54,536 bases of DNA, from the IMG/VR virus record IMGVR_UViG_3300038321_000349, positions 1 to 54,536 of that record; one strand, written 5' to 3'. The notes beneath the pieces were generated by a model. That model saw only the letters and a program-made list of their open reading frames with translations. It ran no database searches and was not told where the DNA came from. Of this stretch, positions 37,015 to 54,536 are shown piece by piece (positions within the stretch are counted from its first letter, which is position 1; every line of letters starts with the position of its first letter). Position numbers and translations under genes: made by a program. The stretch comes from a virus. Taxonomy: Duplodnaviria > Caudoviricetes.

Positions 37015-37037
37015 AAAAATTTCCTCCTCCAGTTTTG

Positions 37038-37404: not shown

Positions 37405-37526
37405 TTAACTATCAAAAACCGCTCTTATGGACTTATTCCCTCGAAGCGATATTTTCATGATTTTACTCAATGGGTTTTACACCCATATGTGCTGAAAGCC
37501 CTGATATATAAGGGTTTTTTACGCTC

Positions 37527-38100: not shown

Positions 38101-38808
38101 TCACCATGCTTTCTCAAGCTCTGACGCCTCGTAGGAATCCACATGTTTTCCGTCATCAAGGGAAACCATTATCAGGTTCCCATTGATGTCAATTATCGTT
38201 CCTTCTTGGCCGCGATACTTCACTCGCACATGATCACCAACTCTAAAGCCAGACGACGACTTGGCTCGGTTTGAATCTCCGAGCACACCGAGAAAAGCAA
38301 ACCATCCTGATTTTTTCTTTCGTTTCTGCTTTTCGAGATTCTTGTTAATCCGGTTCAGGTTGTCCGCAAGCTGTCCCGCACTTTCCGCGAGGTCGTCGAT
38401 CTGTTTCTGAAGAACTCCCGGCTGCCAGATAGCACCTTCATTCGGATCTTGCAGATTGTATCGCTTAGCGATATTTGTTATCACATCGTCCCGAATCTCG
38501 TTATTATTGAGTTCTTCCAGAACCTCCTGCGTACAAGGACCCGTTGCCGCTATCGCGAGAGTATTCAAAAGCTCCTCGTCGCCGATAAATGCAGCAAGCT
38601 CCGCAACCTGAGCATAGGTGAAGGAAAGCTGTACCTTCTCTGCCTTGCGAAGAAGGCGGCGGGCAAGAGCCTCATCTATACATTGGCAGCAATCTACAAT
38701 CTCGGTGGTATCCGCATTTTGAAGGTCGGATATCTGTGAAAGTCTGGAAGAGACAGTGCTATCAGACCAGCAAAGATAACCATCGTAGAATTGTTTCCAG
38801 GTCATCAT
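38101..38808 (-). CDS. Hypothetical protein with coiled coil and C-terminal KOW/SH3-like domain
   Basis: Start overlaps the brxA-like stop; FRVGDHVRVKYRGQEGTIIDI...VSLDDG...ASELEK. Confidence 0.75.
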   Translation of the reverse strand: MMTWKQFYDGYLCWSDSTVSSRLSQISDLQNADTTEIVDCCQCIDEALARRLLRKAEKVQLSFTYAQVAELAAFIGDEELLNTLAIAATGPCTQEVLEELNNNEIRDDVITNIAKRYNLQDPNEGAIWQPGVLQKQIDDLAESAGQLADNLNRINKNLEKQKRKKKSGWFAFLGVLGDSNRAKSSSGFRVGDHVRVKYRGQEGTIIDINGNLIMVSLDDGKHVDSYEASELEKAW

Positions 38809-39518
38809 AAGCTCGCCGTCAGGCTCACTATCATTTCGCCAGCGATGTTCGTGATGGTAAACGTGTCATTCATCATAAGCATTTCCCTCTCAATTTGGTA
38901 TTGGAACGGGAACATATAGCCCATTTCGCGTAAGTCCTGAAGGGTAAAGTTTCCTTTATCTTCGACAGTCATACCGGCACTTGCCAGAAGTGCATTTACT
39001 TTATCGTCTCGCACTTCATGCTTTACGATAGTGTAGCGACCCGGCTTCTCAGCTTTTAAAGCACCAATTGCTTTCATTGTTGCGATGATCTTGTCGATGG
39101 AGTGGAACAGCGTAGCGCGTTCACCCCATTCATCAAAGATCTTCTGCTTTAGTTGCTGGAGTGTAAACTCCTTTTCGAATTCGGAGAGCTTACCAATGAT
39201 CCTCGATACATCTACAAATATCGGATAAGTGGCGAGGATAATACACCAGTGTGCTGCAAGCGAATTATCAGAATCCTTTTCGATAAGAGCCCGTGCCTGT
39301 GTACGTAGAGATTTCGTCTCCGGATTCTCGTAATACCATAAGTTCATCAGAATCTCTCTGGTTTTACGTAAGTTTGTAGGACTCTTGATTTCAAAGCTGA
39401 GGTATTCATTCAGCCTGTCCTTATATTCTTGTTCTGGCAGATTCTCGGATAACAGCTCGACGGCCTTATTAAGCCATGTCATCTTCAAATTTCTCGAAAG
39501 TCCGACCATCTTACCCAT
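38805..39518 (-). CDS. brxA: BrxA-like protein of BREX type 3
   Basis: Position after pglZ, helical 237 aa, RKTREIL..LW and WGER motifs; mostly synteny. Confidence 0.65.
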   Translation of the reverse strand: MGKMVGLSRNLKMTWLNKAVELLSENLPEQEYKDRLNEYLSFEIKSPTNLRKTREILMNLWYYENPETKSLRTQARALIEKDSDNSLAAHWCIILATYPIFVDVSRIIGKLSEFEKEFTLQQLKQKIFDEWGERATLFHSIDKIIATMKAIGALKAEKPGRYTIVKHEVRDDKVNALLASAGMTVEDKGNFTLQDLREMGYMFPFQYQIEREMLMMNDTFTITNIAGEMIVSLTASL

Positions 39519-40986
39519 TGTTATCCACCGCCTTTATTTTAATAAATGGCACGATCACCTCGTCCACCGTTATGCCTCCGTGTGTCATCACCTTGTCACC
39601 TTTCGCATCAAAGGATTTCCCAATGTTGCAGATCAAGTAATCGTACTGCTTGTCAAGAAAGTACTTCGGATACTCGATCATTTCATATTGTTCCTTCATT
39701 TTCTCTTTGTCTGCAAACTTCTCCAGAACCAACATACGATGGCTCTTTGTTTCTGTCTCGACGCCAAGCTTCATCAGTCTCCCCTGACCGACGCATGGAG
39801 TATTACCGTGATCAGCTGATATATAGATATCAAAGCCTTTACTGAGTAGTTTCCGGACAAGTGTCGCGAGCTTTCCGGTACTGGACAGGTATTCCACATC
39901 ACGATACATGCCAGAGCGCCCCTGCTGTTGACCATGAACCATATCATCTATGTCATTGATGATGACGCAACCACACCGAATCGTCGGCCCAAAGTCGGCA
40001 TCGTATCCTCGATGATATTCAACCTGCTCTTTACGCAGGCCAAAGCTTATGGCGCAATCGGTGAATTCCTTACCCTCCTTGCTGGTACTCCACGGGCTCA
40101 AAAGCTGAAGTGGATATTTGCCGGAAACAAGGCTCTGCCGAGAAAGTGATGTGATCGTCGGAATCATGGCAAAAGCCGCAGATCGTTCGTACTTTATGTC
40201 TCCGAAGCTTCGCGACAATATGGTCCAATCAAATTCTGACATTCCGTCCATGACAATAATCACGAACTTGTCACTGTGATTATGTATGTAATCCATCGCG
40301 CCCTTGACGAGCACCGGTGTTTCCCGATCTGAAGTAATCTTTCCTGAAAGCTTGCCGAAGCCTTCAAGTATAAATTTCAAGAATGGTTCCTGTACGAACT
40401 CGGCATTCGCGTCGATCTCATAAGCTGCACAGAAGACATCAATCTCGGATTTTGTCTCCGCGACCTTGATCCAATCCCTATAGTTTTGAGCCTTTTCTGC
40501 CATAACAGAGACATCTTTGATACGCTGCTTCACGTATTTGCGAACATTGTCTCTGCCGTATACAACATTGTCTATGAATTCTTTCGTCTTTTCATACGTG
40601 CAGCAATCGTCATAGAGGCCTTTATACGCCATGCAGAGAAGATCAAAGTTCAGGTCTGCCTTTTCCCGGATGCACTGTGTCTGCAGACGCGGGAAGAGAT
40701 TCATCAAAGAAATACGAAATATGTAAGAGCCACAAGCCTTCAGAACGTCATATGGTATATAAACCTTTGGCGCTGCGAGAATCAGGTACTTATCCTGGCC
40801 GCCTTTGAACTCGTCTTCCCACTCAATTCTGAAGCTCAGGTCATCTTTGTAGCGAATGATCTGGAAACCTCTGTGCTCAAACTCATCTGTATAGTGCGTC
40901 TTTTTTTCAAGGCCGTCCTCATCAATGAAGAGCATGCGTGAAGTGTGGGAAGCATAAGTTTTTTCATATACATATTGTCCGAACAT
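39511..40986 (-). CDS. pglZ: PglZ alkaline-phosphatase-superfamily protein
   Basis: IVMDGMS, PTITSLSRQSL, IDDMVH, ISADHGN, THGGIT.DEVIVPF; GGAGG RBS before ATG 40986. Confidence 0.92.
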   Translation of the reverse strand: MFGQYVYEKTYASHTSRMLFIDEDGLEKKTHYTDEFEHRGFQIIRYKDDLSFRIEWEDEFKGGQDKYLILAAPKVYIPYDVLKACGSYIFRISLMNLFPRLQTQCIREKADLNFDLLCMAYKGLYDDCCTYEKTKEFIDNVVYGRDNVRKYVKQRIKDVSVMAEKAQNYRDWIKVAETKSEIDVFCAAYEIDANAEFVQEPFLKFILEGFGKLSGKITSDRETPVLVKGAMDYIHNHSDKFVIIVMDGMSEFDWTILSRSFGDIKYERSAAFAMIPTITSLSRQSLVSGKYPLQLLSPWSTSKEGKEFTDCAISFGLRKEQVEYHRGYDADFGPTIRCGCVIINDIDDMVHGQQQGRSGMYRDVEYLSSTGKLATLVRKLLSKGFDIYISADHGNTPCVGQGRLMKLGVETETKSHRMLVLEKFADKEKMKEQYEMIEYPKYFLDKQYDYLICNIGKSFDAKGDKVMTHGGITVDEVIVPFIKIKAVDNNG

Positions 40987-40988
40987 TG

Positions 40989-43664
40989 TCACGCCTCCAA
41001 TCTGACAAGGAGGCACAACCTGAATTCTGGATAGACCTCTTGTCCTTTTCTATATCGCTCCTCTACCGTTTCTTTTTCTTTTTCCAGTCGCTGCAGCCGA
41101 GATTTTCTGATGTTATCTATGCCCACATGCTCCGTAGCTTCTGTCCGCAGTTTCAGAGCATACATGTACTTGTCGTAGCTTTCCTTATTTCTTTTTAACT
41201 GCTGATCCTTTAATTCAAGAAACGAATCGTACGCAAATTCTGTGCTCAGCTTTTCGAGCTGTTGATACTCGTCTCCAGTTAGGTTCGGTACGGAACGGAT
41301 AGAAAGTCGTGACGTTCCATCGAGGAATACATCCATAATCCGCTGCCCGGCCATTGGCCGCAGCACAAAATCTTTATTGACAAATACGGGAAGTATTCTC
41401 TGATCCATTTTTTCATCGGTTACAGACAGATCCCAGAGCATGAAGTAACCTTCCTCGTTCGGAAAATCCTGAATCGAAACCGACAATATCGGGGAGAATC
41501 GATCCTGAATCACGTCTGCATTGAGATGCCGCGTAATGCTCTCGTCATTGATACTGATATCCATAATGAGCCGCGGGTCCAATCCCTGCCATGCATCATA
41601 ATAGGTGAGCATCTGGCGCAGAGCGGAATCCACATCAAAGTTCGATTCCTTCCCGACGAGCTTCGTCAGGTCTTTGTCTTCATGAAGCAGGCTCTTGTAT
41701 TTCTGCGCGTTTTTCAGCTCCTGCCGCAGCTCCGATTCTACCGGATATAGATTCTCATCGGATTTTCTATGTGGCCTACTGATCGAGCGCATATAGACAT
41801 CAGTAAAATCAACTTCCGCGACTTCGCTATCAAGGACATCCGAATACTTATCGACGCCCATTTCTTTGAGGATCACAGAGAGCTTTTCTTCCAGCACTTC
41901 CCGTACACGGTTTTCAATCGTCTCTGTTACGATGAAATTGAAAATCTGCACATCTCGCGTCTGACCGATACGATCTACACGACCACAGCGCTGCTCGATC
42001 TTCATCGGATTCCACGGCAAATCGTAGTTGATGATGATATTCGAGAACTGTAAGTTCAGGCCTTCGCCACCGGCATCGGTAGAAATAAAGACGTTCGTAT
42101 TGTCGCGGAATTCCCGAAGTGCCTCGTTACGCTCTTCGATACTCATCCGTCCATTCAGGATTGTCGCTGTATATCCCATAGTCGTTAGCAGTCGCTGGAG
42201 ATATTCCTGCGTAGCCACAAATTCCGTAAAGATGATAATTTTCTGGTTTCTATCTGCGTTTAGGAGAGCGTCTATCGTATTCTCCAGCGTTTCGATTTTT
42301 ACATCCGGGTGCTGGAACTCCGCCTGCTTTGCAACGGCGATGATATTCTCCAACTCGCTGATTTCTTCTTCCATGTCAAGGGACATTGCCAGAAGAGCAT
42401 CCTCGACACCATCTTCGATATCAAGTTCCGCCAAATCCTCCTCGGTAAGAGTTCCCAGTTTGGTATTCTGGGTTTTCAGGATTTCAAGCCGTCTTTCAAG
42501 GCTCTGACGAATTGCTGCCGTGCTGCTTGTCACCATGCGCTGCATGATGATAAGCAGGAAAATCAGGCACATGTTTTTCTTACGATTCCGGAGCGCCTTG
42601 TTATAGGTCTTCGAAACGTAGGACGTGACCATCTCATAGAGCTGTCTTTGATAGGTATGCCGTTCGTCCCAGGTCAGCTCGACCAGATGTGTGACACGGT
42701 TCTTAAACAGCAGATTTCCGTTATTGTCTATAGCCTCGCGCTTCTCTGTACGGATCAGGAACGGAGCAACCTGTTCCTTGACTACGGATTTTGCGTTCGG
42801 AAAGGCATCCTCGTCAAGCAGGCGGACCAGCCGTAGGAAAGGTTCGGTCTTGCCGTTGTGCGGCGTGGCTGTCAGGAGCAGCAGATATGGGCTTGCCTGC
42901 GAAAGTAGATACCCGAGCTTATATCTTGCCACTTCACCGGAAGAACCAGCAACACGATGCGCCTCATCGATGATGATCAGGTCCCAGCCGCTGTTAATGA
43001 TGGAATAAATGCGCTCCTGGTTATATTGCTCGACGCGCTCCTCTGTCCACCCGGCATGTTTTTCGAGAGGCTTGATGGAATCCATCGGCGAGATGACTTG
43101 ATCGTACTGCCCATAGACATCATCGCTGTCCGTAAGCCTGCGAATCGTATCGTAGTCCGACGGCAGAATCACCTGAAACTTCTCGTGGAATTTCTCCTGC
43201 ATTTCCGCAGACCACTGCGTTACAAGGCCGGTCGGGCAGACCACAAGCGTCCGCCTGACCAGTCCTCTTGCTTTCAGTTCCTTGATGACCATGCCAGCCT
43301 CGATCGTTTTCCCGAGGCCGACCTCATCCGCCAGAATATAGCGGATGTTGTTTGTGGACATCACGCGGTTCAGCACATGCAGCTGGTGCGGCAGAGGAAT
43401 GACGCCGCTGGCAAGAGAAGTCAGGAGTCCTCCTGCGGTTTCGTTTTTAATCTTTGACAGAAGCGTGACATAGCGCAGATAATTCTCGTCGTAAGTATTC
43501 GAACCGGACGAATCGCTCAAGCTGTCCGCCATCACCTTATAAACAGTTCCAGTGGACGAATCAAAGACGCGATAGGACACATATCCCCATACTTCGAGCC
43601 GATCGAGAACCTGTACGCTTTTTCCCGTATTCCTGTCAAAGGCGAATTCACCTGCCTTCAGCAT
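40989..43664 (-). CDS. brxHII: SNF2-type helicase BrxHII
   Basis: LPHQ, LADEVGLGKT, IIDEAH, LTATPH, EGLNLQ, PWNP..IEQR.GRVDRIGQ; lies between methylase and pglZ. Confidence 0.85.
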   Translation of the reverse strand: MLKAGEFAFDRNTGKSVQVLDRLEVWGYVSYRVFDSSTGTVYKVMADSLSDSSGSNTYDENYLRYVTLLSKIKNETAGGLLTSLASGVIPLPHQLHVLNRVMSTNNIRYILADEVGLGKTIEAGMVIKELKARGLVRRTLVVCPTGLVTQWSAEMQEKFHEKFQVILPSDYDTIRRLTDSDDVYGQYDQVISPMDSIKPLEKHAGWTEERVEQYNQERIYSIINSGWDLIIIDEAHRVAGSSGEVARYKLGYLLSQASPYLLLLTATPHNGKTEPFLRLVRLLDEDAFPNAKSVVKEQVAPFLIRTEKREAIDNNGNLLFKNRVTHLVELTWDERHTYQRQLYEMVTSYVSKTYNKALRNRKKNMCLIFLLIIMQRMVTSSTAAIRQSLERRLEILKTQNTKLGTLTEEDLAELDIEDGVEDALLAMSLDMEEEISELENIIAVAKQAEFQHPDVKIETLENTIDALLNADRNQKIIIFTEFVATQEYLQRLLTTMGYTATILNGRMSIEERNEALREFRDNTNVFISTDAGGEGLNLQFSNIIINYDLPWNPMKIEQRCGRVDRIGQTRDVQIFNFIVTETIENRVREVLEEKLSVILKEMGVDKYSDVLDSEVAEVDFTDVYMRSISRPHRKSDENLYPVESELRQELKNAQKYKSLLHEDKDLTKLVGKESNFDVDSALRQMLTYYDAWQGLDPRLIMDISINDESITRHLNADVIQDRFSPILSVSIQDFPNEEGYFMLWDLSVTDEKMDQRILPVFVNKDFVLRPMAGQRIMDVFLDGTSRLSIRSVPNLTGDEYQQLEKLSTEFAYDSFLELKDQQLKRNKESYDKYMYALKLRTEATEHVGIDNIRKSRLQRLEKEKETVEERYRKGQEVYPEFRLCLLVRLEA

Positions 43665-43700
43665 ACATTGCCACCTCCAAAAATGTGCAGATCAAAAGCC

Positions 43701-46244
43701 TTACTGCACGCGGCTCAAACTAATGTCGTAGTACATCAGCAGCTTATCGTCTTCCTGAATGGTCTGCTCCGGCAGCCGCTCCGCCATGTCGACAATGGCC
43801 TGATAGTTCTTATCCTTCCAGAGCCTTGAGAAACCTACCCGGATTGCCTCGGAACGAAACAGCTTCAGCTTTCCTTTGCTGTTCATATAGCTCTCGAATT
43901 CCTTCCAGAGATTTTTCTCGCGGAGCTTGGCGACGTCGCCTTCCTTCGTACGGTCCGGAATATACCAGCGGCCCTTATCATCCTGAATGAAGTTCTCGTC
44001 CAGCATGACGGAAAGCTCAGGCATGTCCTCGTATCGGTCGACGGACTTCACTTCCTGCATGAACTTCGGCTGGAGTTCCGCATACGTCTGCGGTGTGTCG
44101 AGCTGCTGATAAAGCCATGCAATAGCAGATTTCTCATTCGAAACGAACAGCTCAAACTGGATCGGCTCGACGTCCATCTTGATGCGGGCAATATCATATT
44201 CGTTCACCTGATCTGGCAGGAAATACATGCCGTCGCGCTTCAGGAACTTCTCATCCAGTCCCTTATAGAAATCCGTCGCATCAATCGGAACCGGAATGCC
44301 GTTCATGATGTGGTATGCAACCATGCGGTCAAAAAGCAGGTACGCCTGACGCTCTGCAATAATGTCGATCTTGCCATCGTGGTCGGAATCCACAACGACA
44401 GGAAGATTAGCAAGATGCTGCCGGACAAACGCCCACGCGGTTTCTTCGGTTCCGGCCTTTGACTCAAATTCCTTGCGGAACTTTTCCTTGGGCTTGTAAG
44501 CCGAAATAACAAGATCCTGCTTCACTGCAGAAGTGTTATTGACCTGCTTGAAGCTGCCTTGCTTTTTATCAAGAGTACGGACATCAGCAATTATAAAACC
44601 GGCTCTCCCAAGGCTCTCTTGAATCGCATTCCACACTGCATTCTTCGAGTTATGAAATTCAACAGTCATCCACCTGTTCGGTTTCAGAACTCTGTAGAAC
44701 TCCAGAAAACAGTTCGTCATTAGACTCTGATATTCAGCAATACCTTTCCCTTGGACATCATTTACAATAGCCTCTGCTTTATTACGGGTTAACACATTAA
44801 GCCAAGACTCCCAAATAAAGCTAAGCTCTGAATAATTTAAATTGTCCCCAAATGGCGGATCGGTAAAAATGTAATCCACAGTGTTATTGGGAATCGTTTT
44901 AAGCTGTGTAGAAGAAGATGTCTCACATAGAGCTCCTCGAAACGTATGGGTCATCTGAAAGACTTTTTGAAAATCTTTAAATTTCCCTTCTACAGCTTTT
45001 ATTACATCGCCTTCAGCAGAAAGGGAAGGTAAATAAAGCGTTCCGCTAAGAACTCCATTCCCGCGCTTTCCCATGTTATAACGAACAAGTTTGGAAACCA
45101 GGCCAGGATTTACTGATTCGACTACAATTCTGAATCTTGATGTTTTTGACTTCTCATACAATGCTGAGAGCACATAAAGATTTCGTTTTGTATAGAATTG
45201 GTCCACATTTGTAATTCCGTATTTGTCATTGCGCCGGGATTCTCCCCCCTCGCACATCCTGTTATGTGGGTAGGGATAGGGTATTGTTAAGGCATCAATC
45301 TTTTTTAGTAACTCTAAATCTGCCTCATCAGGTTTTTTCTCATATCGCTTCCCTGCGTAAAGATAATTGATTAACACGGGAACCTGCCTGCTCATTGTAT
45401 GCGTAGTCTTCAGATTCTCGTCAAAAACGGTCATTACTGCGTTTTGACAGTCTCTTTTTGTTAGACGAACGCCGCATGAAGGACAAGTGAACTCGTTGTT
45501 TACTTTTTTGTTTTTTGCATCGACAGCAACATCCCAAAATACGAATTCATTTCCACAATGTGGGCAAACAAATACATCAGACCACACTGTATAGTTAATT
45601 CTCCCCTTAGGTTTCATTTCCGCGGATAAGAACGATACAGAGGAATCTGAGGAATGTGCGGTTTCGTACATCCAACCACACTCCTTTTCGACTTCTTGTA
45701 GTATTTTTTGACCTTCTTCAACAAAAGCTGTTATATCTACGAGGCTGTTATAATTGTATGTAATATAAGTAGCTACAGGTGACAGGTCATTCAGAATGGC
45801 ATTCCTACGTCCCCAATTGTTCTCGTCAGCTTTCAACTCTTGTTGCAGCATGTAATTATCGGTACCACACATCTGAGCAGCGACACCAGTCATTCCTGTT
45901 CCGCAAAATCCATCAAAAACAATATCGCCTGGCTTGGTGTAATGGAGAATGTATCTCATTATTGCTTTGTAAGGCACCTTAGTATGGTAAGTATGTGCCA
46001 TATAAATAGGATCGTTCTTTCCCTCGCTGACATCAGACGCAAACGGCTCGCGATGATAATCATCCGTCTCCTCGTCGTAAGGAGTCCCGTTCTCCGCGAT
46101 GAATTCCTTAATAAACGGATTCGGGCATGCGGTGTAATATGGCGCATCGGAGAGCGCAATGATGTCCTCGTCCGTGCCGATCGGGAAGCCTTCTATATCG
46201 CGGACCTTGTCGAGATCCTCCTTGGTCAGTTTTCTCTTCTCCAT
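43701..46244 (-). CDS. pglXI: BREX-3 DNA methyltransferase PglXI
   Basis: HTYHTKVP, DGFCGTGMTG (motif I), CPHC/CPSC zinc ribbon, FTDPPF (motif IV). Confidence 0.85.
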   Translation of the reverse strand: MEKRKLTKEDLDKVRDIEGFPIGTDEDIIALSDAPYYTACPNPFIKEFIAENGTPYDEETDDYHREPFASDVSEGKNDPIYMAHTYHTKVPYKAIMRYILHYTKPGDIVFDGFCGTGMTGVAAQMCGTDNYMLQQELKADENNWGRRNAILNDLSPVATYITYNYNSLVDITAFVEEGQKILQEVEKECGWMYETAHSSDSSVSFLSAEMKPKGRINYTVWSDVFVCPHCGNEFVFWDVAVDAKNKKVNNEFTCPSCGVRLTKRDCQNAVMTVFDENLKTTHTMSRQVPVLINYLYAGKRYEKKPDEADLELLKKIDALTIPYPYPHNRMCEGGESRRNDKYGITNVDQFYTKRNLYVLSALYEKSKTSRFRIVVESVNPGLVSKLVRYNMGKRGNGVLSGTLYLPSLSAEGDVIKAVEGKFKDFQKVFQMTHTFRGALCETSSSTQLKTIPNNTVDYIFTDPPFGDNLNYSELSFIWESWLNVLTRNKAEAIVNDVQGKGIAEYQSLMTNCFLEFYRVLKPNRWMTVEFHNSKNAVWNAIQESLGRAGFIIADVRTLDKKQGSFKQVNNTSAVKQDLVISAYKPKEKFRKEFESKAGTEETAWAFVRQHLANLPVVVDSDHDGKIDIIAERQAYLLFDRMVAYHIMNGIPVPIDATDFYKGLDEKFLKRDGMYFLPDQVNEYDIARIKMDVEPIQFELFVSNEKSAIAWLYQQLDTPQTYAELQPKFMQEVKSVDRYEDMPELSVMLDENFIQDDKGRWYIPDRTKEGDVAKLREKNLWKEFESYMNSKGKLKLFRSEAIRVGFSRLWKDKNYQAIVDMAERLPEQTIQEDDKLLMYYDISLSRVQ

Positions 46245-46248
46245 AGTT

Positions 46249-49200
46249 TTAATTCTCCTTACGCTTTACGACGATACGCAGCTTGCTTTCATCCTTGCCT
46301 CTAGTGTAGGAAGCGATGATATCGTTCAGCTTCTTACGGAAGTTATCTTCACTGAGCGGCTGTAGCTGTTCGAGCTTTTCCACCAGCGTTTCCGCGTCGA
46401 TGACCACAGGCTCGAATCCTTTCAGAAGCGCGGTAATGCTCTCGACGAAGAAATCATCCACTCGCTTCGGTAGTTCTTTTGAGGCGACAAAGTCATCGAT
46501 GACTTTCTGCTGGTCGTCATTCAGGTACTGCTTCTGCGCGAGCACGAGCGGATCGGTGACAGTCTCCAGCAGCTTCTTCGTCCATTCCTGTGTCAGCTCA
46601 TCAATGCCGTAGTCGATCTGATCCAGCAGGCCATGCACATTTCTCTCATGGCTGCTCATGTCAAAGTGGCAATGAAGGCAGATTGGATTCTTCTTCAGTT
46701 CGCTCGGCGTCAGTTCGTAGCAGACCTTGATGTTCGCCATCGATGTTTCAAGGTCGGACAGCTTCGCACCCGGCAGAATCGTGATGGCGTGCAGCTTACG
46801 TAGATTCTTGAGTGCAAAGCTCTCCTGAATCTTACCCTTCCGCTGCGCATCCTCAATTCCGAGGCGCTTCTTCGAATGTGCATCGTAGTAAAGATTAATG
46901 TACTTTTCCTGTACTGGCTCAAGCGCATCCTTCACAGCGCGAGCCGCATCAGCACCGGATGTCCCTTCTGCAATGCTGTCTCTTGCTGCTCGGAAGGCTG
47001 CGCGTGCGTCTTCGATAGAAGTTTTAATCTCATCAATATCGAAGTTCTGGACACTCGCAACGTATCCGACTAAATCTCCGCATTCGCTCTTGAAATCGAG
47101 GTACTCAGGAATACGGCGTAAAGTCCAGATCTGCTTCTCAATTTCCTGAATCTCATCCATCGTGTGCCGGAAATTATTCAGCTTTGCGAAAGTGTTAAAC
47201 TTCGCTGAGTAGTTGCTGAATTCCCCCTTGACCTTATCGCAGGCGCTCTGCATCTTCGCCTTCATCTGCGAATCTGCAAGCGGCTCTCCCCACAGCTCGA
47301 AGCCGTCAGAAAGTTTCCTTGTTCCGAGAACCGCATCATTGCAAAAATTCTGTGCGGCCTGAATGAGCTGCTTGACGCCATTGTCTCTGTCCTTCGGCAA
47401 ATCCAGGAGCGCAGGATTGAGGCCAAGTACCTCGAACATCTTCTTGATCTCCGCCAGAGCCATCTTTGCCGGACGGGAGATGTACTTGAATTCGTACAGA
47501 TCAAGCGCATTTGTATTTGGAATCTCATCAAGGTTGGATGCTGTTATCGTCTTGCCATTGTTCAGCGTAATGACCGCGTATCCCGCGTAAACAAGCGACA
47601 GGAAGATGATCGGTGTAAACAAGAAGCTGATCTTAAATTGCTTGTCGATATACACACTCATGAACTGCTCTTCAAACAGGTCGGTATAGTTCAACACGCC
47701 CTGTGGCGGCAGCTCCTGCAGGCGATCGATATAGTATCTGGCATACTTCGAGTTTTCAGGTTTGATCTTGTCATCCTCGAGCACACCAAAGCTCTCGAGC
47801 ATCATCCGTGCTTGCTGCGTCTTCCGGCCTGCAAAATAGTCAAAGGAATCCCGTGCCAGTCCTGCCATGTTCTTTCTGGTGACTCTGGTCTTCATGACCG
47901 GGAAGTCTTTGTACTTGCCCGTGAAATATTCATCAAGGCAGATCGAGGCTGCGAGGTCGATGGTATCTTTGAAAGTCAGGTCTGGACGATACTTGCCTTT
48001 CAAAACCTCGATCAGCTGTCTCATCTGAGCTTTGTAGGTCACGTTGAAGCAGGTGTTCTTGTTATCGCTTAGATATTTTACGAGCTGGCGGTTGAACATT
48101 TTCGCCTTGTTCAGATAGGCTTCCTTATCCTTGCCCTCGCTGATTTCAGCTAGCTGATTCGCTGCTGCATAGAGTTCCAAATTTTTCTTGAACTCATCCG
48201 CGGAGCGGAAGAAGAAGTAGACTTCGTCCGGGAGATTCGCAATATCCACATTGCCGTTGTCATATGGCGGCATGATGTGGATATAGAAGTCTCGTTCCGG
48301 CTGGGCCGTGCTGCGTTCTCCCGGAAGTCCCATAAAGAGATAACCTTCCCGGAAGATATTGTGGCTGTTCCAGTTCAGATCGTACTCGTAGATCTTGAAG
48401 TTTGTGACGTATTCCTTCGCGTCCCATTCAAGGCAGTTGTAGACAACCGTGTAAAAGTACCGATTCAGCTCCGCAGGAGCCAGAAGCGACGCTTTCTGAT
48501 TGATCTTCTCGTCGTAGTCTACGACCTTGTCGACGTCGATGTAGTACTGGTTATTCGCGTCGTTATGAATGATGAACTGTCCGGAGACGGTCGTCATGAT
48601 ATCCTTCAGCGTCGTGTTGACAACGCCAAGGAGGAAGTCTGCATCGTTTTCCGGCATGGAATCCAGATACAGGCAGAGGTCGTCCTTCAGGTTTTCCGCG
48701 GTCAGTCCGAACTGCACATCGAGTCCGTTTGTCGTCAGCCTATGCACGCTGAGTGCATAAATGATCTGAATTGCGAGCGGCTTATAAACCTTGTGCGGGA
48801 AGGAGCGATTGATAATCTCCTCCAGCTGTGTGCTGGCATTCACGACCTTGCTGATTGTAACGTCGCTCTTCAGAAGCCCATTTCCCTTGATGGCGGGCCA
48901 ATAGGTATCGAAGGAATAGATTCCAGGTGCATCTTCCGGTACGTCTTTATCAAAGATATCACGAATGACTCTGGAGATGTTTTTCAAGATATGGCGGTTC
49001 TCCACAAGATAGACTTTATTGAATACATCAATATAAGCCGGGTGAATCGGAAACAGATCCACAAATTCATCCATGCGGGTAGACATGCCACTGTAAAGGC
49101 TGGAGAACTTCTCGAGGTGATTCCGGATCAGCGCCTTCTGTTCCGGATTCTTCTTCAGGATCCTTTCTGAAACAACGTACTCCGTATCTTCCTTTGTAAT

Positions 49201-49938
49201 CTCCATCTGTGTAAAACGATCGCTGACGTGTTTCAGCGTTTCGGAGACGAAGCTGAATTTTGGATTGTCGAAGATTTTCTCCTGAATGCCAAGAATGATA
49301 CGGAGATTACTCTTTGAGCACATTTCTCCGAAAGCACGCAACACTTCCAGGTCAAGAACCAGCTGGCGCTCGTCTCTGGATGTAAGGTAGGCCAGGAACT
49401 CGTCTACGACGATCAGATATCCCTTGTCCGGGTATTTGGAATTGAAGGCTTCCATCATCTGACGGATGACCTTCTTGTTGTCGCGGACCGTCGAATAGTC
49501 TGGTTTCTTGAAGTCAATGCCACGACGCTGGAAATCCTCTTCAATGTAGTCAAAGAGAATATCGTAGAGCGTCATGGTCACTCCACCAATTTCCAACCGT
49601 AGAATCTCGAATTTGCCTGCAACAGGCTCCATGCGCTTTGCAAAGTTCTGGTTCTGTAAATATTGGAGATTGCCTGCGTCATTAGCCACAGCAGAAATCA
49701 CACTCATCAGGTGAGATTTACCGGTACCATAGTTACCTACGATGAAAACGCCTTTGTTGTCGACTACCTCGTCCATCTGGAGCTGGTCGATCACCGGAGC
49801 CTGCAGACTTTCCGCCATGCTGTCCGACATGACATAGGTCTGCACGAGTTCCTTGACTCCGCTTTCTGTTTTTGTGCCCTCAACAAGCTGTATCGTCGAT
49901 TCGATTGGCTTGAAGCTTATTAGCTCTGAATACTTCAT
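46249..49938 (-). CDS. brxC: BrxC/PglY-type ATPase (DUF6079-like)
   Basis: GNYGTGKS Walker A, LIVVDE Walker B, LFPIHP; 1229 aa with C-terminal CxxC. Confidence 0.88.
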   Translation of the reverse strand: MKYSELISFKPIESTIQLVEGTKTESGVKELVQTYVMSDSMAESLQAPVIDQLQMDEVVDNKGVFIVGNYGTGKSHLMSVISAVANDAGNLQYLQNQNFAKRMEPVAGKFEILRLEIGGVTMTLYDILFDYIEEDFQRRGIDFKKPDYSTVRDNKKVIRQMMEAFNSKYPDKGYLIVVDEFLAYLTSRDERQLVLDLEVLRAFGEMCSKSNLRIILGIQEKIFDNPKFSFVSETLKHVSDRFTQMEITKEDTEYVVSERILKKNPEQKALIRNHLEKFSSLYSGMSTRMDEFVDLFPIHPAYIDVFNKVYLVENRHILKNISRVIRDIFDKDVPEDAPGIYSFDTYWPAIKGNGLLKSDVTISKVVNASTQLEEIINRSFPHKVYKPLAIQIIYALSVHRLTTNGLDVQFGLTAENLKDDLCLYLDSMPENDADFLLGVVNTTLKDIMTTVSGQFIIHNDANNQYYIDVDKVVDYDEKINQKASLLAPAELNRYFYTVVYNCLEWDAKEYVTNFKIYEYDLNWNSHNIFREGYLFMGLPGERSTAQPERDFYIHIMPPYDNGNVDIANLPDEVYFFFRSADEFKKNLELYAAANQLAEISEGKDKEAYLNKAKMFNRQLVKYLSDNKNTCFNVTYKAQMRQLIEVLKGKYRPDLTFKDTIDLAASICLDEYFTGKYKDFPVMKTRVTRKNMAGLARDSFDYFAGRKTQQARMMLESFGVLEDDKIKPENSKYARYYIDRLQELPPQGVLNYTDLFEEQFMSVYIDKQFKISFLFTPIIFLSLVYAGYAVITLNNGKTITASNLDEIPNTNALDLYEFKYISRPAKMALAEIKKMFEVLGLNPALLDLPKDRDNGVKQLIQAAQNFCNDAVLGTRKLSDGFELWGEPLADSQMKAKMQSACDKVKGEFSNYSAKFNTFAKLNNFRHTMDEIQEIEKQIWTLRRIPEYLDFKSECGDLVGYVASVQNFDIDEIKTSIEDARAAFRAARDSIAEGTSGADAARAVKDALEPVQEKYINLYYDAHSKKRLGIEDAQRKGKIQESFALKNLRKLHAITILPGAKLSDLETSMANIKVCYELTPSELKKNPICLHCHFDMSSHERNVHGLLDQIDYGIDELTQEWTKKLLETVTDPLVLAQKQYLNDDQQKVIDDFVASKELPKRVDDFFVESITALLKGFEPVVIDAETLVEKLEQLQPLSEDNFRKKLNDIIASYTRGKDESKLRIVVKRKEN

Positions 49939-49952
49939 TTAGCGTTTCCTCC

Positions 49953-50372
49953 TTAAATGACACAGGTGATGTCATAGTTCTTTACTTCATATGCTTTATA
50001 GTCCGGATACCCTTGTTCGCTGTAATAAAGTGTTCCGTTTTCATATCGCCCCGGCCAGATCACGCTGTACGGTTTGCTTTTCCGGGCCTCGGTGAGAATC
50101 TTCAAAACGTCGACCTGATAGGCTGGATTGAACATCACGTCGATATCTTTGATGACCACGTTGTCCGGATACTGTGCGAGCACGCTTTGAAAACAAGATG
50201 CAAGCCTCATTGTCCGGCTCCTCGGCGATACGTCCTGCAGTTTTTCCGAAAGCGGTTTGCTGACAGATATCGGCTTTGAAGACAGCTCTCGTATTCGTGT
50301 CCAGTAAATGAGAAGCCGGGAAATGGTGTTTTTTTGTCTTTGGAGATTTCCATATTTAATAATCTCGCCCAT
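49953..50372 (-). CDS. brxF: BrxF-like protein
   Basis: IDVMFNP.Y.VDVLKIL, WPG...GTLYYSEQGYPDY; first gene before brxC. Confidence 0.75.
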   Translation of the reverse strand: MGEIIKYGNLQRQKNTISRLLIYWTRIRELSSKPISVSKPLSEKLQDVSPRSRTMRLASCFQSVLAQYPDNVVIKDIDVMFNPAYQVDVLKILTEARKSKPYSVIWPGRYENGTLYYSEQGYPDYKAYEVKNYDITCVI

Positions 50373-50387
50373 TTCAATCCGCCTTCC

Positions 50388-50600
50388 TCATTTTGCCTCT
50401 TCGTTCGTCATTTCCATTATGTCACTGACATCACAATCCAAGGCAACGCATATCTTTTCTATGATCTCTGTATTCACATTTTCATTTTTTCCAAGTTTTG
50501 TTATTGACGCCGAGCTAATACCGGCAGCCTTCTGTAAATCCTTCTTTTTCATATCGCGATCTATCAGTAGTTTCCACAATTTCTTATAGCTAATGGCCAT
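50388..50600 (-). CDS. Xre/Cro-C1 HTH regulator heading BREX operon
   Basis: MAISYKKLWKLLIDRDMKKKDL...KIC.ALDC...DIME; GAGGT RBS. Confidence 0.9.
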   Translation of the reverse strand: MAISYKKLWKLLIDRDMKKKDLQKAAGISSASITKLGKNENVNTEIIEKICVALDCDVSDIMEMTNEEAK

Positions 50601-50642
50601 GACGCTTACCTCGCTTTCCGCCAAAATCAGACTTGTAAACCC

Positions 50643-50671
50643 ATTATACACATTCTGCGATGCAAAATCAA
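50643..50671 (-). promoter_or_regulatory. SigA promoter for Xre-BREX operon
   Basis: Minus strand TTGATT-17 bp-TATAAT. Confidence 0.7.
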
Positions 50672-50711
50672 GATTTAATCAAGCGTTCGCGCGAAATTTT
50701 CCGCCGAATTA

Positions 50712-50740
50712 TTGATTTATGCACAAACTTTTGATATACT
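50712..50740 (+). promoter_or_regulatory. SigA promoter for kinase-GNAT-ASCH operon
   Basis: TTGATT-17 bp-TGnTATACT. Confidence 0.7.
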
Positions 50741-50789
50741 GTACATAATCTATTTTTTAGCTACGCTGAACAACTTAGGAGGTGGTCCT

Positions 50790-51308
50790 ATGATCTTTAT
50801 CAGTGGCATTCATGCGGTCGGCAAAGGCTACTTCTGTGGCCTTGTAAAAAAGGAACTGGGTATCGAGGCGTATTCGGCAAGTGATCTGATTGCAAAGGCA
50901 CGTAATGCCAGTTTCAGTAGTGACAAGCTGGTCGCCGAAATAGAGGAAAACCAGCAGTATTTACTCGCCGCCGTGCAAGAGCTGCGCGAAAGCGGTAGCG
51001 ATTTCATTCTTGACGGGCATTTCTGCCTCATCAACAGGAGCACTGGCGAACCGGAACGGATCTCGCTTGAGACGTTCACCACGCTCAAGCCGGAAGCCAT
51101 CGTATTATTGACTGAGAAGCCGAAGGTCATCGTCGAACGCCGCAAGACACGCGACGGGATCGATGAGACACCTGAGTATGTAGAACAGTTTCAAAACATG
51201 GAAAAACAATACGCCAATGAGGTCGCCGAGTTACTGAATGCGAAGCTGTTCATCTCGACCGGCGCAGCTGATCTCGAGTCGGCGATTGACTTCCTGAGAT
51301 CCCTATAA
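50790..51308 (+). CDS. P-loop NMP-kinase-like protein (archaeal adenylate-kinase-like)
   Basis: AGGAGG RBS; IFISGIHAVGKG P-loop, SASDLI, ILDGH, ERRKTRD lid-like motif. Confidence 0.8.
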   Translation: MIFISGIHAVGKGYFCGLVKKELGIEAYSASDLIAKARNASFSSDKLVAEIEENQQYLLAAVQELRESGSDFILDGHFCLINRSTGEPERISLETFTTLKPEAIVLLTEKPKVIVERRKTRDGIDETPEYVEQFQNMEKQYANEVAELLNAKLFISTGAADLESAIDFLRSL

Positions 51309-51320
51309 GGAGGAAATCAT

Positions 51321-52418
51321 ATGGCAGGTAAATTCATTCACAAGCGATTTGCTGACATAGATATCAACGATCCCTTCTTCGACTCATTAAAGAGAGACTA
51401 TCCGGGCAGCGCAAACAGTACTGAATTCACAAAGTGGTTCGCCAAGAAAGCAGCAGAAGGAAAGGAAGCCCTCGTCTTCGAAGATGAGCAAGGTGTCGGC
51501 GCTTTCGTTAATCTGAAGCCAGGTGAAACGGAAGAGATCAAACTTTCAAATGGACACGTTCTTCCGTACGACTCTCGCTTAAAGATTACGACGATCAAGA
51601 TCGACGAACGGTTCCAACATCAGCGGATTGGCGAAGGCGCACTGGGATTGACATTATGGGACTGGAGAGATCAATGCGCTAACGAGATCTATGTTACAGT
51701 CTTCGAGAAGCATACCAGCTTAATCTTCCTGCTTGAAAAATACGGATTCAATTACGTTGGAGATAATCTTAACGGTGAACGCGTCTATATCAAGGACCGC
51801 AGAAATTTGGACATTAGCGATCCATGCAAGGCGTTTCCATTCATCAGTGGCAGGATGAGCCATGCCGGATGCCTTGCTATTAATATGGAATATCACGATA
51901 CCATGTTTGCCTATTCAGAACTGGCAAATACGCTGCAGGAGCGCGTCGATATCAATGTTGCAAATGGTCTGAAGAAGGTCTATATTGGAAGTCCTTATAG
52001 TCTCGCTTTCAAAGCTGGTGATCCCGTCCTTATTTATCGAAAGTATACCGGTAATGATGGCAGACCCGGCTATAAGTCTGTTATAACCTCATACTGCATT
52101 GCTACCCGAGTTGAGAAAATAAAAACTCAGGGACAGTTCTTACATTCGTTTGATGAGTTTCTTCACATCGTTGGAAACAAGTCGGTCTATACCAAGTTTG
52201 AACTAAAGAATCGGTATGATAATGAAAAGAATCTTACTGTAATCGAACTTCTTTACTGCGGTTATTTTGGCGCAGGCAATAATGTCAATTGGAGATGGCT
52301 CAAGGATAATGACCTCTGGCCGGGAACCCACCCGATGAATTTCCGATACACAAGAAGTCAATTCGAGAAAATTCTACGGGAGGGAAATGTTGATGTCGAC
52401 AATGTTATTATCGATTAA
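51321..52418 (+). CDS. GNAT acetyltransferase with C-terminal PUA/ASCH-like domain
   Basis: DPFFDSLK.DY, LKITTIKI..RFQHQRIGE (acetyl-CoA loop), IYVTVF, LLEKYGF; KKVYI...GDPVLIYR C-terminal region. Confidence 0.75.
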   Translation: MAGKFIHKRFADIDINDPFFDSLKRDYPGSANSTEFTKWFAKKAAEGKEALVFEDEQGVGAFVNLKPGETEEIKLSNGHVLPYDSRLKITTIKIDERFQHQRIGEGALGLTLWDWRDQCANEIYVTVFEKHTSLIFLLEKYGFNYVGDNLNGERVYIKDRRNLDISDPCKAFPFISGRMSHAGCLAINMEYHDTMFAYSELANTLQERVDINVANGLKKVYIGSPYSLAFKAGDPVLIYRKYTGNDGRPGYKSVITSYCIATRVEKIKTQGQFLHSFDEFLHIVGNKSVYTKFELKNRYDNEKNLTVIELLYCGYFGAGNNVNWRWLKDNDLWPGTHPMNFRYTRSQFEKILREGNVDVDNVIID

Positions 52419-52764
52419 GCCAGAATACGCTAAAGTCATTCTTGATGGACAAAAGGAATACGAATTTCGAAAACGCCGATGTAAAACCGGCGTCAATAAA
52501 ATTGTTTTCTACTCCACGGCTCCCGAAAGCAAGGTCGTCGGAGAAGCTGAGATTGAGGACATCATAGAAGGAAGCCCTTCTAAAATCTGGGAGCTGGCTA
52601 AAAAAGCTGCCGGAATTACGCGGGCAAAGTACCGCGCCTACTATCACGGCTATCACAACGCCGTGGCTTACAAACTGAAAAACGTAGTCGTCTACGACCC
52701 TCCAAAAGAACTGTCGGACTACGGGATAGATCATGTTCCACAATCTTTCATCTACTTGGACTAA
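52393..52764 (+). CDS. ASCH domain protein
   Basis: LLSIKPEYA..ILDGQKEYEFRK, VFYSTAP..KVVGE, VPQSFIYL; overlaps GNAT stop. Confidence 0.9.
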   Translation: MSTMLLSIKPEYAKVILDGQKEYEFRKRRCKTGVNKIVFYSTAPESKVVGEAEIEDIIEGSPSKIWELAKKAAGITRAKYRAYYHGYHNAVAYKLKNVVVYDPPKELSDYGIDHVPQSFIYLD

Positions 52765-52772
52765 ACTTATTG

Positions 52773-52803
52773 TCGCGCTGTATGAAAATGCAGCGCGATT
52801 TTT
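52773..52803 (+). terminator. Intrinsic terminator
   Basis: TCGCGCTGTAT-GAAA-ATGCAGCGCGA-TTTTT. Confidence 0.8.
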
Positions 52804-52811
52804 CAGCCTCC

Positions 52812-52871
52812 TTGACATCGGTTTTTCTTTTTGATACACTAATAAACAGATTAGCGAATCTGCTAATCAGC
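52812..52871 (+). promoter_or_regulatory. SigA promoter with downstream dyad operator
   Basis: TTGACA-17 bp-TGnTACACT (52812-52840); GATTAGC-N6-GCTAATC (52849-52868). Confidence 0.8.
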
Positions 52872-52890
52872 TATTGAAAGGAGAATTGCT

Positions 52891-53274
52891 ATGGCTGGTG
52901 AATTTGGAAAGTTTATCGACGAAAAACGCCGAGGGCGTGGTCCGGACGGAGGAGACATCCTGCTTAAGGACATTGCCAAGGCTATGGGTGCGACGCCCAC
53001 CTATTTATCCGACATCGTTAAAGGACGCCGGAACCCACCCGAAATGTCCATGCTCCTGAAGATCTCCGATGTGCTTCACCTCTCTCCCGAGGAGCAGGCC
53101 CAGATGTTCGACCTTGCCGGACGGGACAGAAATGAAGCTGCCCCTGATCTTCCTGAATACATCATGGATGAGAACCTGCCGCATGTCCGCGCTGCTCTTC
53201 GGAAAGCCAACGACAAAGGTCTCAGGGATGATTTCTGGAAGCAGGTCTATGACGCAATCGACAAGAAGGAGTGA
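52891..53274 (+). CDS. Xre-family repressor (ImmR-like)
   Basis: FGKFIDEKR, LKDIAKAMGATPTYLSDIVKGRRNPP HTH. Confidence 0.9.
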   Translation: MAGEFGKFIDEKRRGRGPDGGDILLKDIAKAMGATPTYLSDIVKGRRNPPEMSMLLKISDVLHLSPEEQAQMFDLAGRDRNEAAPDLPEYIMDENLPHVRAALRKANDKGLRDDFWKQVYDAIDKKE

Positions 53275-53283
53275 TCCTATCGT

Positions 53284-53997
53284 ATGGTAAATGACGTATT
53301 TCTCAGCAACCTTGTCCCTCACATGTACAAGTCTGAATTTGATGACCGGGCTGCTGATTTTCTCTCGCATTACTGCAAAGAGGCGCTGGAAAAGCCGATG
53401 CCCGTCCCTATCGAGGATATCGCCAGGCATCAGCTTCACATGGCCATTCTGGAAGTTCATCTCAGCGAAGATCTGAGCATTCTCGGTCAAACCTGCTTTA
53501 CAGACGGTCTCGCAGAAATCTACGATCCCGAAAACGACGAATACAGAGAGATTCCGATAAAAGGCGGAACCATGCTCATCGATCCGGACACGTTTCTGAA
53601 GCGAAACTTCGGAACCAAGAGGAATACCATCGCCCACGAATGCGTCCACTGGGTATACCACAGAAGATACTATATCGCCGCCAACCGGCTCGGCAATAAG
53701 CAGAGCATTGCCTACAGGGAGCCTGCCGGAATCGGTTATGACACCCTTCCCAAGAAATGGTCTGACGAAGACTGGATGGAATGGCAAGCCAACAACATCG
53801 CTCCTCGCATTCTCATGCCTAAGCAGACTGTCGGTAAAGCCTTCCAGATGGTACTGGATCGGAGCAAGGAGAATTCATTTGTTTCTGCCGGACTTGTCTC
53901 CAAGGGAAAATGGGTGATCGAGCAGTTCGCTGGCTTCTATCAGGTCTCAAAACAGTCCGCTGCAATACGCTTACAGGAGCTGGGCTACCTTTCCTAA
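53284..53997 (+). CDS. ImmA/IrrE-family metallopeptidase
   Basis: PVPIEDIA, NTIAHECVH (HExxH), EWQAN....ILMP, VSKQSA.IRL. Confidence 0.9.
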   Translation: MVNDVFLSNLVPHMYKSEFDDRAADFLSHYCKEALEKPMPVPIEDIARHQLHMAILEVHLSEDLSILGQTCFTDGLAEIYDPENDEYREIPIKGGTMLIDPDTFLKRNFGTKRNTIAHECVHWVYHRRYYIAANRLGNKQSIAYREPAGIGYDTLPKKWSDEDWMEWQANNIAPRILMPKQTVGKAFQMVLDRSKENSFVSAGLVSKGKWVIEQFAGFYQVSKQSAAIRLQELGYLS

Positions 53998-54091
53998 TAT
54001 GCATCAGGTAGTTCCGCTCTTTATTTTTTGCAAAGTAACTTCGCTAATCAGCGGAGCCGCTTATTTAGGAATTTTAGAAAGGAGGGATTCA

Positions 54092-54301
54092 ATGGAAGAT
54101 ATCCGAGACTGTTCAGGTCATCTCATGTGTCGCGGAGATGCCAGAACCGGCTTCGTGTCCTCTCTCTACAAAGGACATCGCACCACTGCTCACCTTGCAG
54201 TCGGCGAAACGTTCACCGTCGAGAGAAACGATACCAAGACCGAAATCACACGGATTGATGACTCGACCTTCAAGGTCAAGAGTTTTCAGAAAGCCGTGTA
54301 A
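54092..54301 (+). CDS. Small hypothetical protein (69 aa)
   Basis: AAAGGAGG RBS before ATG 54092. Confidence 0.7.
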   Translation: MEDIRDCSGHLMCRGDARTGFVSSLYKGHRTTAHLAVGETFTVERNDTKTEITRIDDSTFKVKSFQKAV

Positions 54302-54334
54302 GCGACAAACAAGTGAATAACACGTAAATCAACG

Positions 54335-54428
54335 ATCCGCAGAGCTGCACAGACGGCCGAGATAGTGACTTCAAAAACACTGTCCCGGCCGTCTTTCTGT
54401 CTCTACGGACGGTTCGGCTTCTGCGGAT
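54335..54428 (+). other. Nested stem-loop leader structure
   Basis: Outer ATCCGCAGA / TCTGCGGAT; inner AGACGGCCGAGATAGTG / CACTGTCCCGGCCGTCT followed by TTT. Confidence 0.55.
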
Positions 54429-54453
54429 TCAAGCAAATCCAAAGGAGTCGAAC

Positions 54454-54536
54454 ATGGGAAACAAATCTAAAACCTATCGCATCTACGACAAGACCACCAA
54501 GCAGTGGTACGAGATCCCGGAGGACCAGTACCGGGA
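54454..54536 (+). CDS. 5' end of a gene (possibly sigma-70 region 4 type regulator), truncated by window edge
   Basis: AAAGGAG RBS; MGNKSKTYRIYDKTTKQWYEIPEDQYR; product guessed from context only. Confidence 0.5.
   Translation, partial: MGNKSKTYRIYDKTTKQWYEIPEDQYR

Follow-up and report, generated by a model that had tools for sequence, protein, structure and literature searches.

A kinase-bearing, PIN-less GNAT-PUA and ASCH operon beside a type 3 BREX system is a member of a known, experimentally uncharacterised family

A three-gene operon encoding a P-loop kinase (gene 1), a GNAT domain fused to a PUA-like domain (gene 2) and a stand-alone ASCH protein (gene 3) is found in positions 1 to 54,536 of the IMG/VR virus record IMGVR_UViG_3300038321_000349 (Duplodnaviria; Caudoviricetes), the whole stretch of DNA analysed here, referred to below as the window (54,536 nucleotides, nt). 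The operon belongs to a known and experimentally uncharacterised family, as a kinase-bearing, PIN-less member whose acetyl-CoA loop is intact, and the window reveals no new kind of system. It is probably a toxin-antitoxin (TA)-like, mobile anti-phage cassette, because the two core genes are strictly paired and translationally coupled, homologues are annotated as toxin and antitoxin, relatives are fused to PIN or TIR domains, and the genes occupy defence and prophage slots. An earlier reading, made from the DNA letters and their translations (the sequence-only reading), had proposed an undescribed defence system with a toxin and a neutraliser. The toxin and neutraliser idea holds in general terms, toxicity and neutralisation being what we infer, and the claim of an undescribed system does not survive.

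All three open reading frames (ORFs) were confirmed as a + strand operon where they had been reported. The kinase gene (50790-51308, +; 172 amino acids, aa) has an AGGAGG 8 nt 5' of its ATG. The GNAT-PUA-like fusion gene (51321-52418, +; 365 aa) starts 12 nt past the kinase stop and has its own AAGGAGG. The longest ORF for the ASCH gene is 52387-52764 (+), and its third codon is a Met at 52393. As this Met is kept in at least 95% of 76 aligned homologues, the start is probably 52393, which gives a protein of 123 aa (52393-52764, +) and a 26-nt overlap with gene 2. An overlap of 26 nt is also the commonest spacing in related loci. The tight or overlapping junctions of the sequence-only reading are thus seen at both gene boundaries.

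Prior descriptions of the family come from three sources. In PADLOC, genes 2 and 3 correspond to models A and B of candidate PDC-M11: gene 2 matches PDLC04419 (PDC-M11A) at 2e-66 (residues 6-364 on profile positions 13-356 of 357) and gene 3 matches PDLC04425 (PDC-M11B) at 1e-42 (residues 5-125 on profile positions 2-123 of 132). The PDCs are 145 single- and multi-gene candidates, explicitly untested, that are embedded in BREX, DISARM or type I RM (restriction-modification) systems, according to the accessible part of their description (Payne et al. 2024, 10.1101/2024.01.29.577857). In the searchable literature, "PDC-M11" occurs as an annotation label only, in two preprints. The second source is comparative genomics, where statements here refer to the accessible parts of the papers. 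Bell, Wolf and Koonin 2020 (BMC Biol 18:159, PMC7641849) describe (PIN)-GNAT-EVE genes together with ASCH, often with an AAA_17 ATPase; they predict a TA function for GNAT-EVE systems, and credit the idea of nucleic-acid or base acetylation to Iyer et al. 2013. PIN-GNAT-PUA proteins (PIN_15/PIN_17) are reported by Matelska et al. 2017 (PMC5499597), accompanied by another PUA/ASCH protein and in some cases an ATPase, the PIN-linked GNAT being without acetyl-CoA motif A. Third, the record of Escherichia phage PhiR47_2 (PV340567.1) annotates homologues of genes 2 and 3, directly after cI, as "GevT toxin" and "GevA antitoxin". GevT is 32.3% identical to gene 2 over 98% of the length of gene 2, and no paper on GevT/GevA was found in the searchable literature.

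To describe linkage within the family, loci were scanned with one genome per species; 149 loci were found and the best 80 kept, with at least 49% identity. The window's own DNA is among the 80 (L001). In 77 of these loci gene 2 is immediately followed downstream by the ASCH gene, and in the other three the contigs end before that point. Room for a kinase gene exists in 76 of the 80, of which 52 have it and 24 do not; the remaining four have no space for one. Conservation of the three genes together therefore holds for the GNAT-PUA and ASCH pair, not for the kinase. In wider searches, gene 2 gave 731 matches among word-sharing candidates, and an exhaustive search of representative clusters at 50% identity gave 903 matches at E ≤ 1e-3, 414 at 1e-10 and 75 at 1e-30.

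Gene 2 is without a PIN domain and begins with the GNAT; PIN-like N-termini are found only in distant relatives. Those of about 600-620 aa (P0242 and similar) are ASCH + PIN-like + GNAT-PUA fusions, and those of about 499 aa (P0197 and similar) have a PIN-like N-terminus followed by GNAT-PUA, where the PIN-like calls come from a reading of the N-terminal motif and Pfam named no domain. One relative (P0236, 532 aa) is a TIR-GNAT-PUA fusion, a form of which no mention was found in the accessible parts of the literature on these systems. Another (P0071), 65% identical to gene 2, is a partial kinase fused to GNAT-PUA. PIN and TIR are typical defence effector domains.

The loci are distributed over Clostridia, Listeria, Akkermansia, Actinomyces, methanogens and Pirellulales, and this spread across distant taxa points to horizontal transfer of the cassette. 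The window's own clade is mostly from Clostridia. Homologues are also present in 14 phage records, and PHROG families exist for both core genes (gene 2 matches phrog_6345 at 1.7e-57). Of 5426 complete genomes of E. coli, 275 carry the GevT/GevA allele. In the Salmonella phage SopEPhi (L084, 2926-6215), the pair stands between gpA (replication) and gpQ (portal). After it come two genes that may form another cargo module, one with a phosphoribosyltransferase domain and one DprA-like (DNA_processg_A). Directly upstream of the pair in Lactobacillus prophage Lj965 (L085, 2289-4384) are genes for four tRNAs (Ser, Glu, Tyr and Phe); this may be chance, or a hint that the activity is directed at tRNA.

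Neighbouring genes were surveyed as 118 flanking ORFs from 17 loci (of 42 with at least 10 kb), taking PADLOC matches at E ≤ 1e-12 within 6 kb. A defence match near the pair is seen in 13 of the 17 loci, as a raw count without background control, with type I RM in six. Other PADLOC neighbours are BrxC, AbiL, DrmC/REase III, PDC-M46 and mad genes. Proximity to defence genes is thus seen in most surveyed loci, as the defence-island idea would have it.

Gene 2 has no Pfam match at E ≤ 0.01, EVE included. Its AlphaFold2 model (predicted local distance difference test (pLDDT) 89.3, predicted template modelling score (pTM) 0.87) has a GNAT fold at residues 2-162 (1wwz_B, Z 14.3, root-mean-square deviation (rmsd) 2.9, 143 aligned) and a PUA-like fold at residues 179-358 (ZmASCH 5guq_A, Z 12.1, rmsd 3.4, 141 aligned). 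Foldseek with the same model returns GNAT matches at E of about 1e-5. The predicted structure thus bears out a GNAT fused to a PUA/ASCH-like domain. Folded alone (pLDDT 79.2), the C-domain again has 5guq_A as its best match (Z 11.7); it also matches EVE proteins (2gbs, Z 9.1; 2ar1, 9.0; 5j3e, 9.0; 1wmm, 8.7), THYN1 with 5-methylcytosine (5mC) DNA being one of this group at Z 9.0, then YTH (Z 8.3) and, lower down, YqfB (Z 6.7). By predicted fold, the C-domain is PUA-like, of the EVE/ASCH type.

The acetyl-CoA loop of gene 2 is Q101-R-I-G104-E-G106-A, and the canonical form (Q/R-x-x-G-x-G/A) is found in 75 of 81 aligned rows of the window's clade. It is not kept in GevT, five PIN-like forms, seven ASCH-PIN forms, the TIR fusion P0236 and one other long form. 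In the wider family, Gly or Ala is present at position 106 in 146 of 204 members, and Gln or Arg at position 101 in 123 of 204. As the loop is intact, we think from its sequence that the GNAT of the window's clade is catalytically active. Ten near-universal residues (Y27, W39, K88, Y124, E153, P173, H192, K219, Y239 and R240), spread over both domains of the fusion protein, co-occur in 194 of 204 aligned members, fusions included.

Gene 3 matches Pfam ASCH at 3e-4 and carries the GxKxxExR motif as G21, K23, E26 and R28, which agrees with its assignment as a stand-alone ASCH protein. These four residues and Y42 are kept in at least 95% of the 76 homologues. No HTH (helix-turn-helix) or RHH (ribbon-helix-helix) match is found in Pfam. 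The closest solved relative is ZmASCH (5guq, phmmer E 1e-12), and no YqfB chain is among the PDB sequence matches at E ≤ 1. The octapeptide of gene 3 is of the Glu-type (GKER) class, not the Thr/Ser type of YqfB; N4-acetylcytidine (ac4C) amidohydrolases of the YqfB type have GK[T/S]R (preprint 10.64898/2026.02.27.708502). With this octapeptide, and with ZmASCH as its nearest studied relative, gene 3 does not fit the YqfB-type deacylase that had been suggested. ZmASCH binds nucleic acid and cuts single-stranded RNA (ssRNA) in vitro, with Tyr47, Lys53 and Ser128 in its cleft (PMC5615036, accessible part). It does not hydrolyse free ac4C and does not lower tRNA ac4C in vivo, and all ASCH proteins tested in the same work took ac4C34 off tRNA in vitro (preprint 10.64898/2026.02.27.708502). 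Paralogy of the two PUA-like parts, gene 3 and the C-domain of gene 2, was considered and rejected, as profile-profile similarity is absent (probability only 0.2).

The folds of both proteins also bear on a different reading, that of a writer and eraser of nucleic-acid acetylation, which the sequence-only reading put forward and which is close to the idea credited to Iyer et al. 2013. In it the GNAT-PUA protein would put an acetyl mark on a base of DNA or RNA, such as cytosine at N4, the ASCH protein would read or remove the mark, and the P-loop protein would give ATP-dependent help. TmcA, an ATP-dependent tRNA acetyltransferase, is an analogy for such help. The canonical acetyl-CoA loop of the window's clade fits this reading, as do the nearness of the C-domain to THYN1 with 5mC DNA and to YTH readers of N6-methyladenosine (m6A), the removal of ac4C34 in vitro by every ASCH protein tested, the presence of the kinase in 52 of 76 loci, and the acetylation proposal that later papers, in their accessible parts, attribute to Iyer et al. 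2013. However, we consider it unlikely: ZmASCH leaves free ac4C intact and does not reduce tRNA ac4C in vivo, the octapeptide of gene 3 is Glu-type rather than Thr/Ser, one locus in three does without the kinase, and the canonical loop is missing in most of the wider family (Gly or Ala at position 106 in only 146 of 204 members, Gln or Arg at position 101 in 123). A bolder version for the canonical-loop clade, quite unlikely in our estimate, would make the kinase, GNAT-PUA and ASCH proteins an ATP-assisted nucleic-acid acetylation circuit for immunity. Here the GNAT-PUA protein would write on tRNA or phage nucleic acid during infection and the ASCH protein would erase or read the mark, and the PIN and TIR relatives would have exchanged this chemistry for a nuclease or NADase as effector but kept the sensor pocket, which the ten near-universal residues mark. 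If true, it would be the first case of an immune system that relies on acetylating bases reversibly.

The kinase matches Pfam AAA_17 at 6.8e-17 and AAA_18 at 9.1e-8, so its assignment as a P-loop kinase stands. Its P-loop, GIHAVGKG, had been called atypical; GxxxxGKG is the usual adenylate-kinase form, and the loop is normal for that fold. The best PDB sequence matches are adenylate kinases, although weak (1zak, E 0.011; archaeal 1nks, E 0.043), and the score to the NCBIfam adenylate kinase NF003122 is 32.2 bits against a cut-off of 155. Conservation among 51 homologues is at least 95% for K12 (the Walker A Lys), R121 and D122, and at least 80% for R117 and R118. The R117-D122 segment aligns with a region of 1nks holding Arg and Asp residues, which we take to be the adenylate-kinase lid. 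Given these conserved residues, the gene 1 product looks like an active phosphotransferase, apparently with a kinase-like fold and yet no orthodox adenylate kinase. In PADLOC it has only a weak match to VakA (9e-5), and a search of a protein atlas returned unnamed AAA_17 clusters only.

The kinase is an accessory gene, found directly upstream of gene 2 in 49 loci and between genes 2 and 3 in three (L044, L064 and L080). Since 24 of the 76 loci do without it despite having room, it is no core "recycling" step, contrary to the proposal that it recycles or activates a modified nucleotide. A substitute in the kinase-less loci was sought and rejected, as the upstream genes differ and have nothing in common: they are Schlafen/AlbA_2 (twice), HsdS, a transposase, a relaxase, a sigma factor, or have no match. 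The Schlafen/AlbA_2 (COG2865-like) gene is directly upstream of the pair in L023 (4328-5767) and L040 (4741-5976), and COG2865 is also drawn in GNAT-EVE neighbourhoods in the accessible part of Bell et al. 2020 (PMC7641849). A tie between kinase presence and the state of the acetyl-CoA loop was likewise rejected, as the two do not track each other within the window's clade.

The NMP-kinase-like fold (NMP, nucleoside monophosphate) of gene 1 would suit a housekeeping role in nucleotide or RNA upkeep, for example the salvage of acetylated nucleosides by a deacetylase and a kinase, and ASCH proteins of the YqfB and EOLA1 types do act in ac4C salvage according to the accessible parts of the literature on them. 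Such a role is nevertheless highly improbable here. The distribution is patchy across phyla and domains, the pair sits in variable prophage slots with defence genes close by, relatives carry PIN and TIR fusions, and the kinase is far under the adenylate kinase cut-off (32 vs 155 bits).

In the favoured TA-like reading, GNAT-PUA and ASCH, the latter coupled to the former in translation, would make up the core. Activity and potential toxicity would lie in the GNAT domain, which the fused PUA-like domain would dock on nucleic acid, most likely RNA or tRNA. Domains of the PUA type often hold the ends of RNA or modified bases, and aminoacyl-tRNA is what known GNAT toxins acetylate. On these grounds the GNAT may be aimed at RNA, probably tRNA, and its target would be the amino group of aminoacyl-tRNA or a base. 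The ASCH protein, as a second PUA-like RNA binder, would silence the system in uninfected cells by binding the toxin, by competing for its substrate or RNA, or by reversing or removing its product, while the kinase would be an optional modulator. In this scheme it is the toxicity, the substrate, the mode of neutralisation and the phage trigger that we infer.

Several points weigh against a TA-like cassette. No experiment on any family member was found in the searchable literature. The GevT/GevA labels are database annotation only, for proteins that are 32% identical, and GevT is without the canonical acetyl-CoA loop, so GevT and the window's GNAT may not work alike. The accessible part of Matelska et al. 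2017 (PMC5499597) argues that PIN-fused GNAT domains are inactive; if this inactivity were family-wide, acetylation would not be the mechanism. According to the accessible part of Bell et al. 2020 (PMC7641849), GNAT-EVE proteins without PIN may help phages to counter restriction by the host, and not act in defence. In the neighbour survey, four of the 17 loci are without a defence match and the 13 of 17 has no background rate. Three of the 13 have "mad" matches only, and at least the mad2 model also matches a plain methyltransferase (Pfam Methyltransf_11). Finally, the role of the kinase is unexplained by a TA-like cassette.

In the window, the operon adjoins a complete type 3 BREX system (BrxF, BrxC, PglXI, BrxHII, PglZ and BrxA; 38805-50372, −), identified with PADLOC and with Pfam DUF6079 and PglZ. 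This agrees with the defence-island setting of the sequence-only reading, the operon being beside BREX and not within it. The PglZ ORF is short, with 501 aa that cover only positions 283-639 of a 641-position profile. At the head of the BREX operon, and divergent from the kinase operon, is a small Cro/C1-type HTH gene (50388-50651, −; Pfam HTH_26 3.7e-20), which is a possible shared regulator of BREX and the kinase operon.

The window, as a virus record, has siphovirus-type genes up to about 31.4 kb, including those for a family A DNA polymerase, a D5-like primase, portal/ClpP, capsid and tail proteins and an amidase lysin, followed by three serine-recombinase ORFs at 31738-35296. Past the recombinases the GC content falls from about 0.60 to about 0.45, and the operon is 15 kb beyond them in the low-GC part. 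Since the island with BREX and PDC-M11 lies past the recombinases, it may belong to the flanking host DNA or to a separate element and not be cargo of the phage. The location is relevant to a counter-defence role, in which a prophage-borne GNAT-PUA protein would benefit the phage by acting on host restriction or competing elements. Such a role was raised for PIN-less GNAT-EVE by Bell et al. 2020 (PMC7641849, accessible part), and the virus record itself, the homologues in 14 phage records and the PHROG families for both genes are in line with it. It is nonetheless very unlikely for an operon that is 15 kb past the recombinases, in DNA of about 45% GC where the phage has about 60%, and next to BREX. 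Many loci of the family are chromosomal, beside type I RM, and the pair that is directly after cI in a lambdoid phage fits prophage-encoded exclusion, this slot being presumably the place of the lambda rexAB exclusion genes.

The sequence-only reading had given the operon its own promoter and terminator, of which the terminator is supported and the promoter is a promoter-like site with weak evidence. The site (50712-50740, +), found in a consensus scan, has TTGATT, a 17-nt spacer with TG, and TATACT, and sits in the 138-nt divergent intergenic region common to the operon and the HTH/BREX operon. The scan found 14 sites in 4.6 kb where 5.9 were expected; such sites thus exceed expectation in this stretch, and 50712-50740 is weak evidence of a promoter. 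The intrinsic terminator (52772-52804, +) has a 12-bp GC-rich stem and a 4-nt loop (stem-loop 52772-52799), followed by UUUUU. Its hairpin has a free energy of −20.1 kcal/mol (z = −5.5), and none of 200 shuffles is equally stable. Contigs assembled from RNA libraries of two studies span the operon and both gene junctions, although strand and transcription are not provable from contigs. One such contig, of run X16, starts at 50773, downstream of the promoter-like site, and a second stops at 52761, past which it is sequencing adapter. The regions of about 50555-50705 (in X16 and X17) and about 52765-52855 (in X16 and X18) are uncovered, contig gaps being no proof.

Among other features of the window, the left edge of the low-GC island (35370-37083 and 38101-38808, −) encodes a methyltransferase of class I S-adenosylmethionine (SAM) type (PADLOC mad2-like, 1.2e-20) and a hexapeptide-repeat transferase; an ORF of 235 aa, also located there just downstream of brxA, has no match. 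At 52891-53997 (+) are genes for an XRE-type HTH protein and an M78 (IrrE/ImmA-like) peptidase, with weak matches to capH and capP (8.2e-4 and 5.1e-10). This pair has its own promoter-like site (52812-52840), and contig depth over it is far greater than over the operon in two RNA libraries of one sample. A MerR/TipAS-type regulator gene in the phage part (13966-14721, +) is unusual phage cargo. No tRNA gene is found in the window, and no Rfam family at 35000-54536.

The family is large, is found in bacteria and archaea and occupies classic prophage and defence-island slots, yet no published experiment on it was found. The window offers handles for such work in its intact-loop clade, its optional kinase, the ten near-universal residues and the natural PIN, TIR and ASCH fusions of its relatives, which link the parts with one another. 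The identity of the substrate would settle the question of nucleic-acid or tRNA acetylation in immunity, which others trace to Iyer et al. 2013.

Among known systems, the type II GNAT toxins TacT, AtaT and KacT consist of a single domain, are about 170-180 aa long and pair with RHH or HTH antitoxins that bind DNA. They have the GNAT fold in common with gene 2, and are the source of the idea of acetylating an RNA-linked amine. The "bacterial toxin" 7byy_A matches gene 2 at Z 12.5, although this is no better than generic GNATs, and gene 2 differs in being a two-domain protein (GNAT + PUA-like) whose ASCH partner is without an HTH or RHH match. ZmASCH of Zymomonas mobilis (5guq; Kim et al. 2017) is closest to gene 3 by sequence and to the C-domain of gene 2 by fold, and in our own reading of the alignment its Tyr47 apparently equals the conserved Y42 of gene 3. 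It differs in that its PDB entry calls the molecule a helix-turn-helix domain-containing protein, and its ssRNA cleavage is in vitro only.

GevT/GevA of PhiR47_2 are homologous genes with the same order and overlap, and the ASCH protein is of the same size (125 aa); however, there is no kinase gene, the acetyl-CoA loop is non-canonical, and the pair is in a lambdoid immunity region. With PDC-M11, both the A and B models are matched over their full length, and the position of the window's copy beside BREX resembles that of candidates embedded in defence systems. Only the A and B models are matched, whereas the kinase has none, the composition of PDC-M11 being read from the names of its hidden Markov models. 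The (PIN)-GNAT-EVE and ASCH operons have the same order of GNAT then PUA-like domain, an adjacent ASCH gene and often an AAA_17 gene, and keep the same company of type I RM, other defence genes and prophages. The window's copy differs from them in being without PIN, and its clade keeps the acetyl-CoA loop that is lost in the PIN-fused forms.

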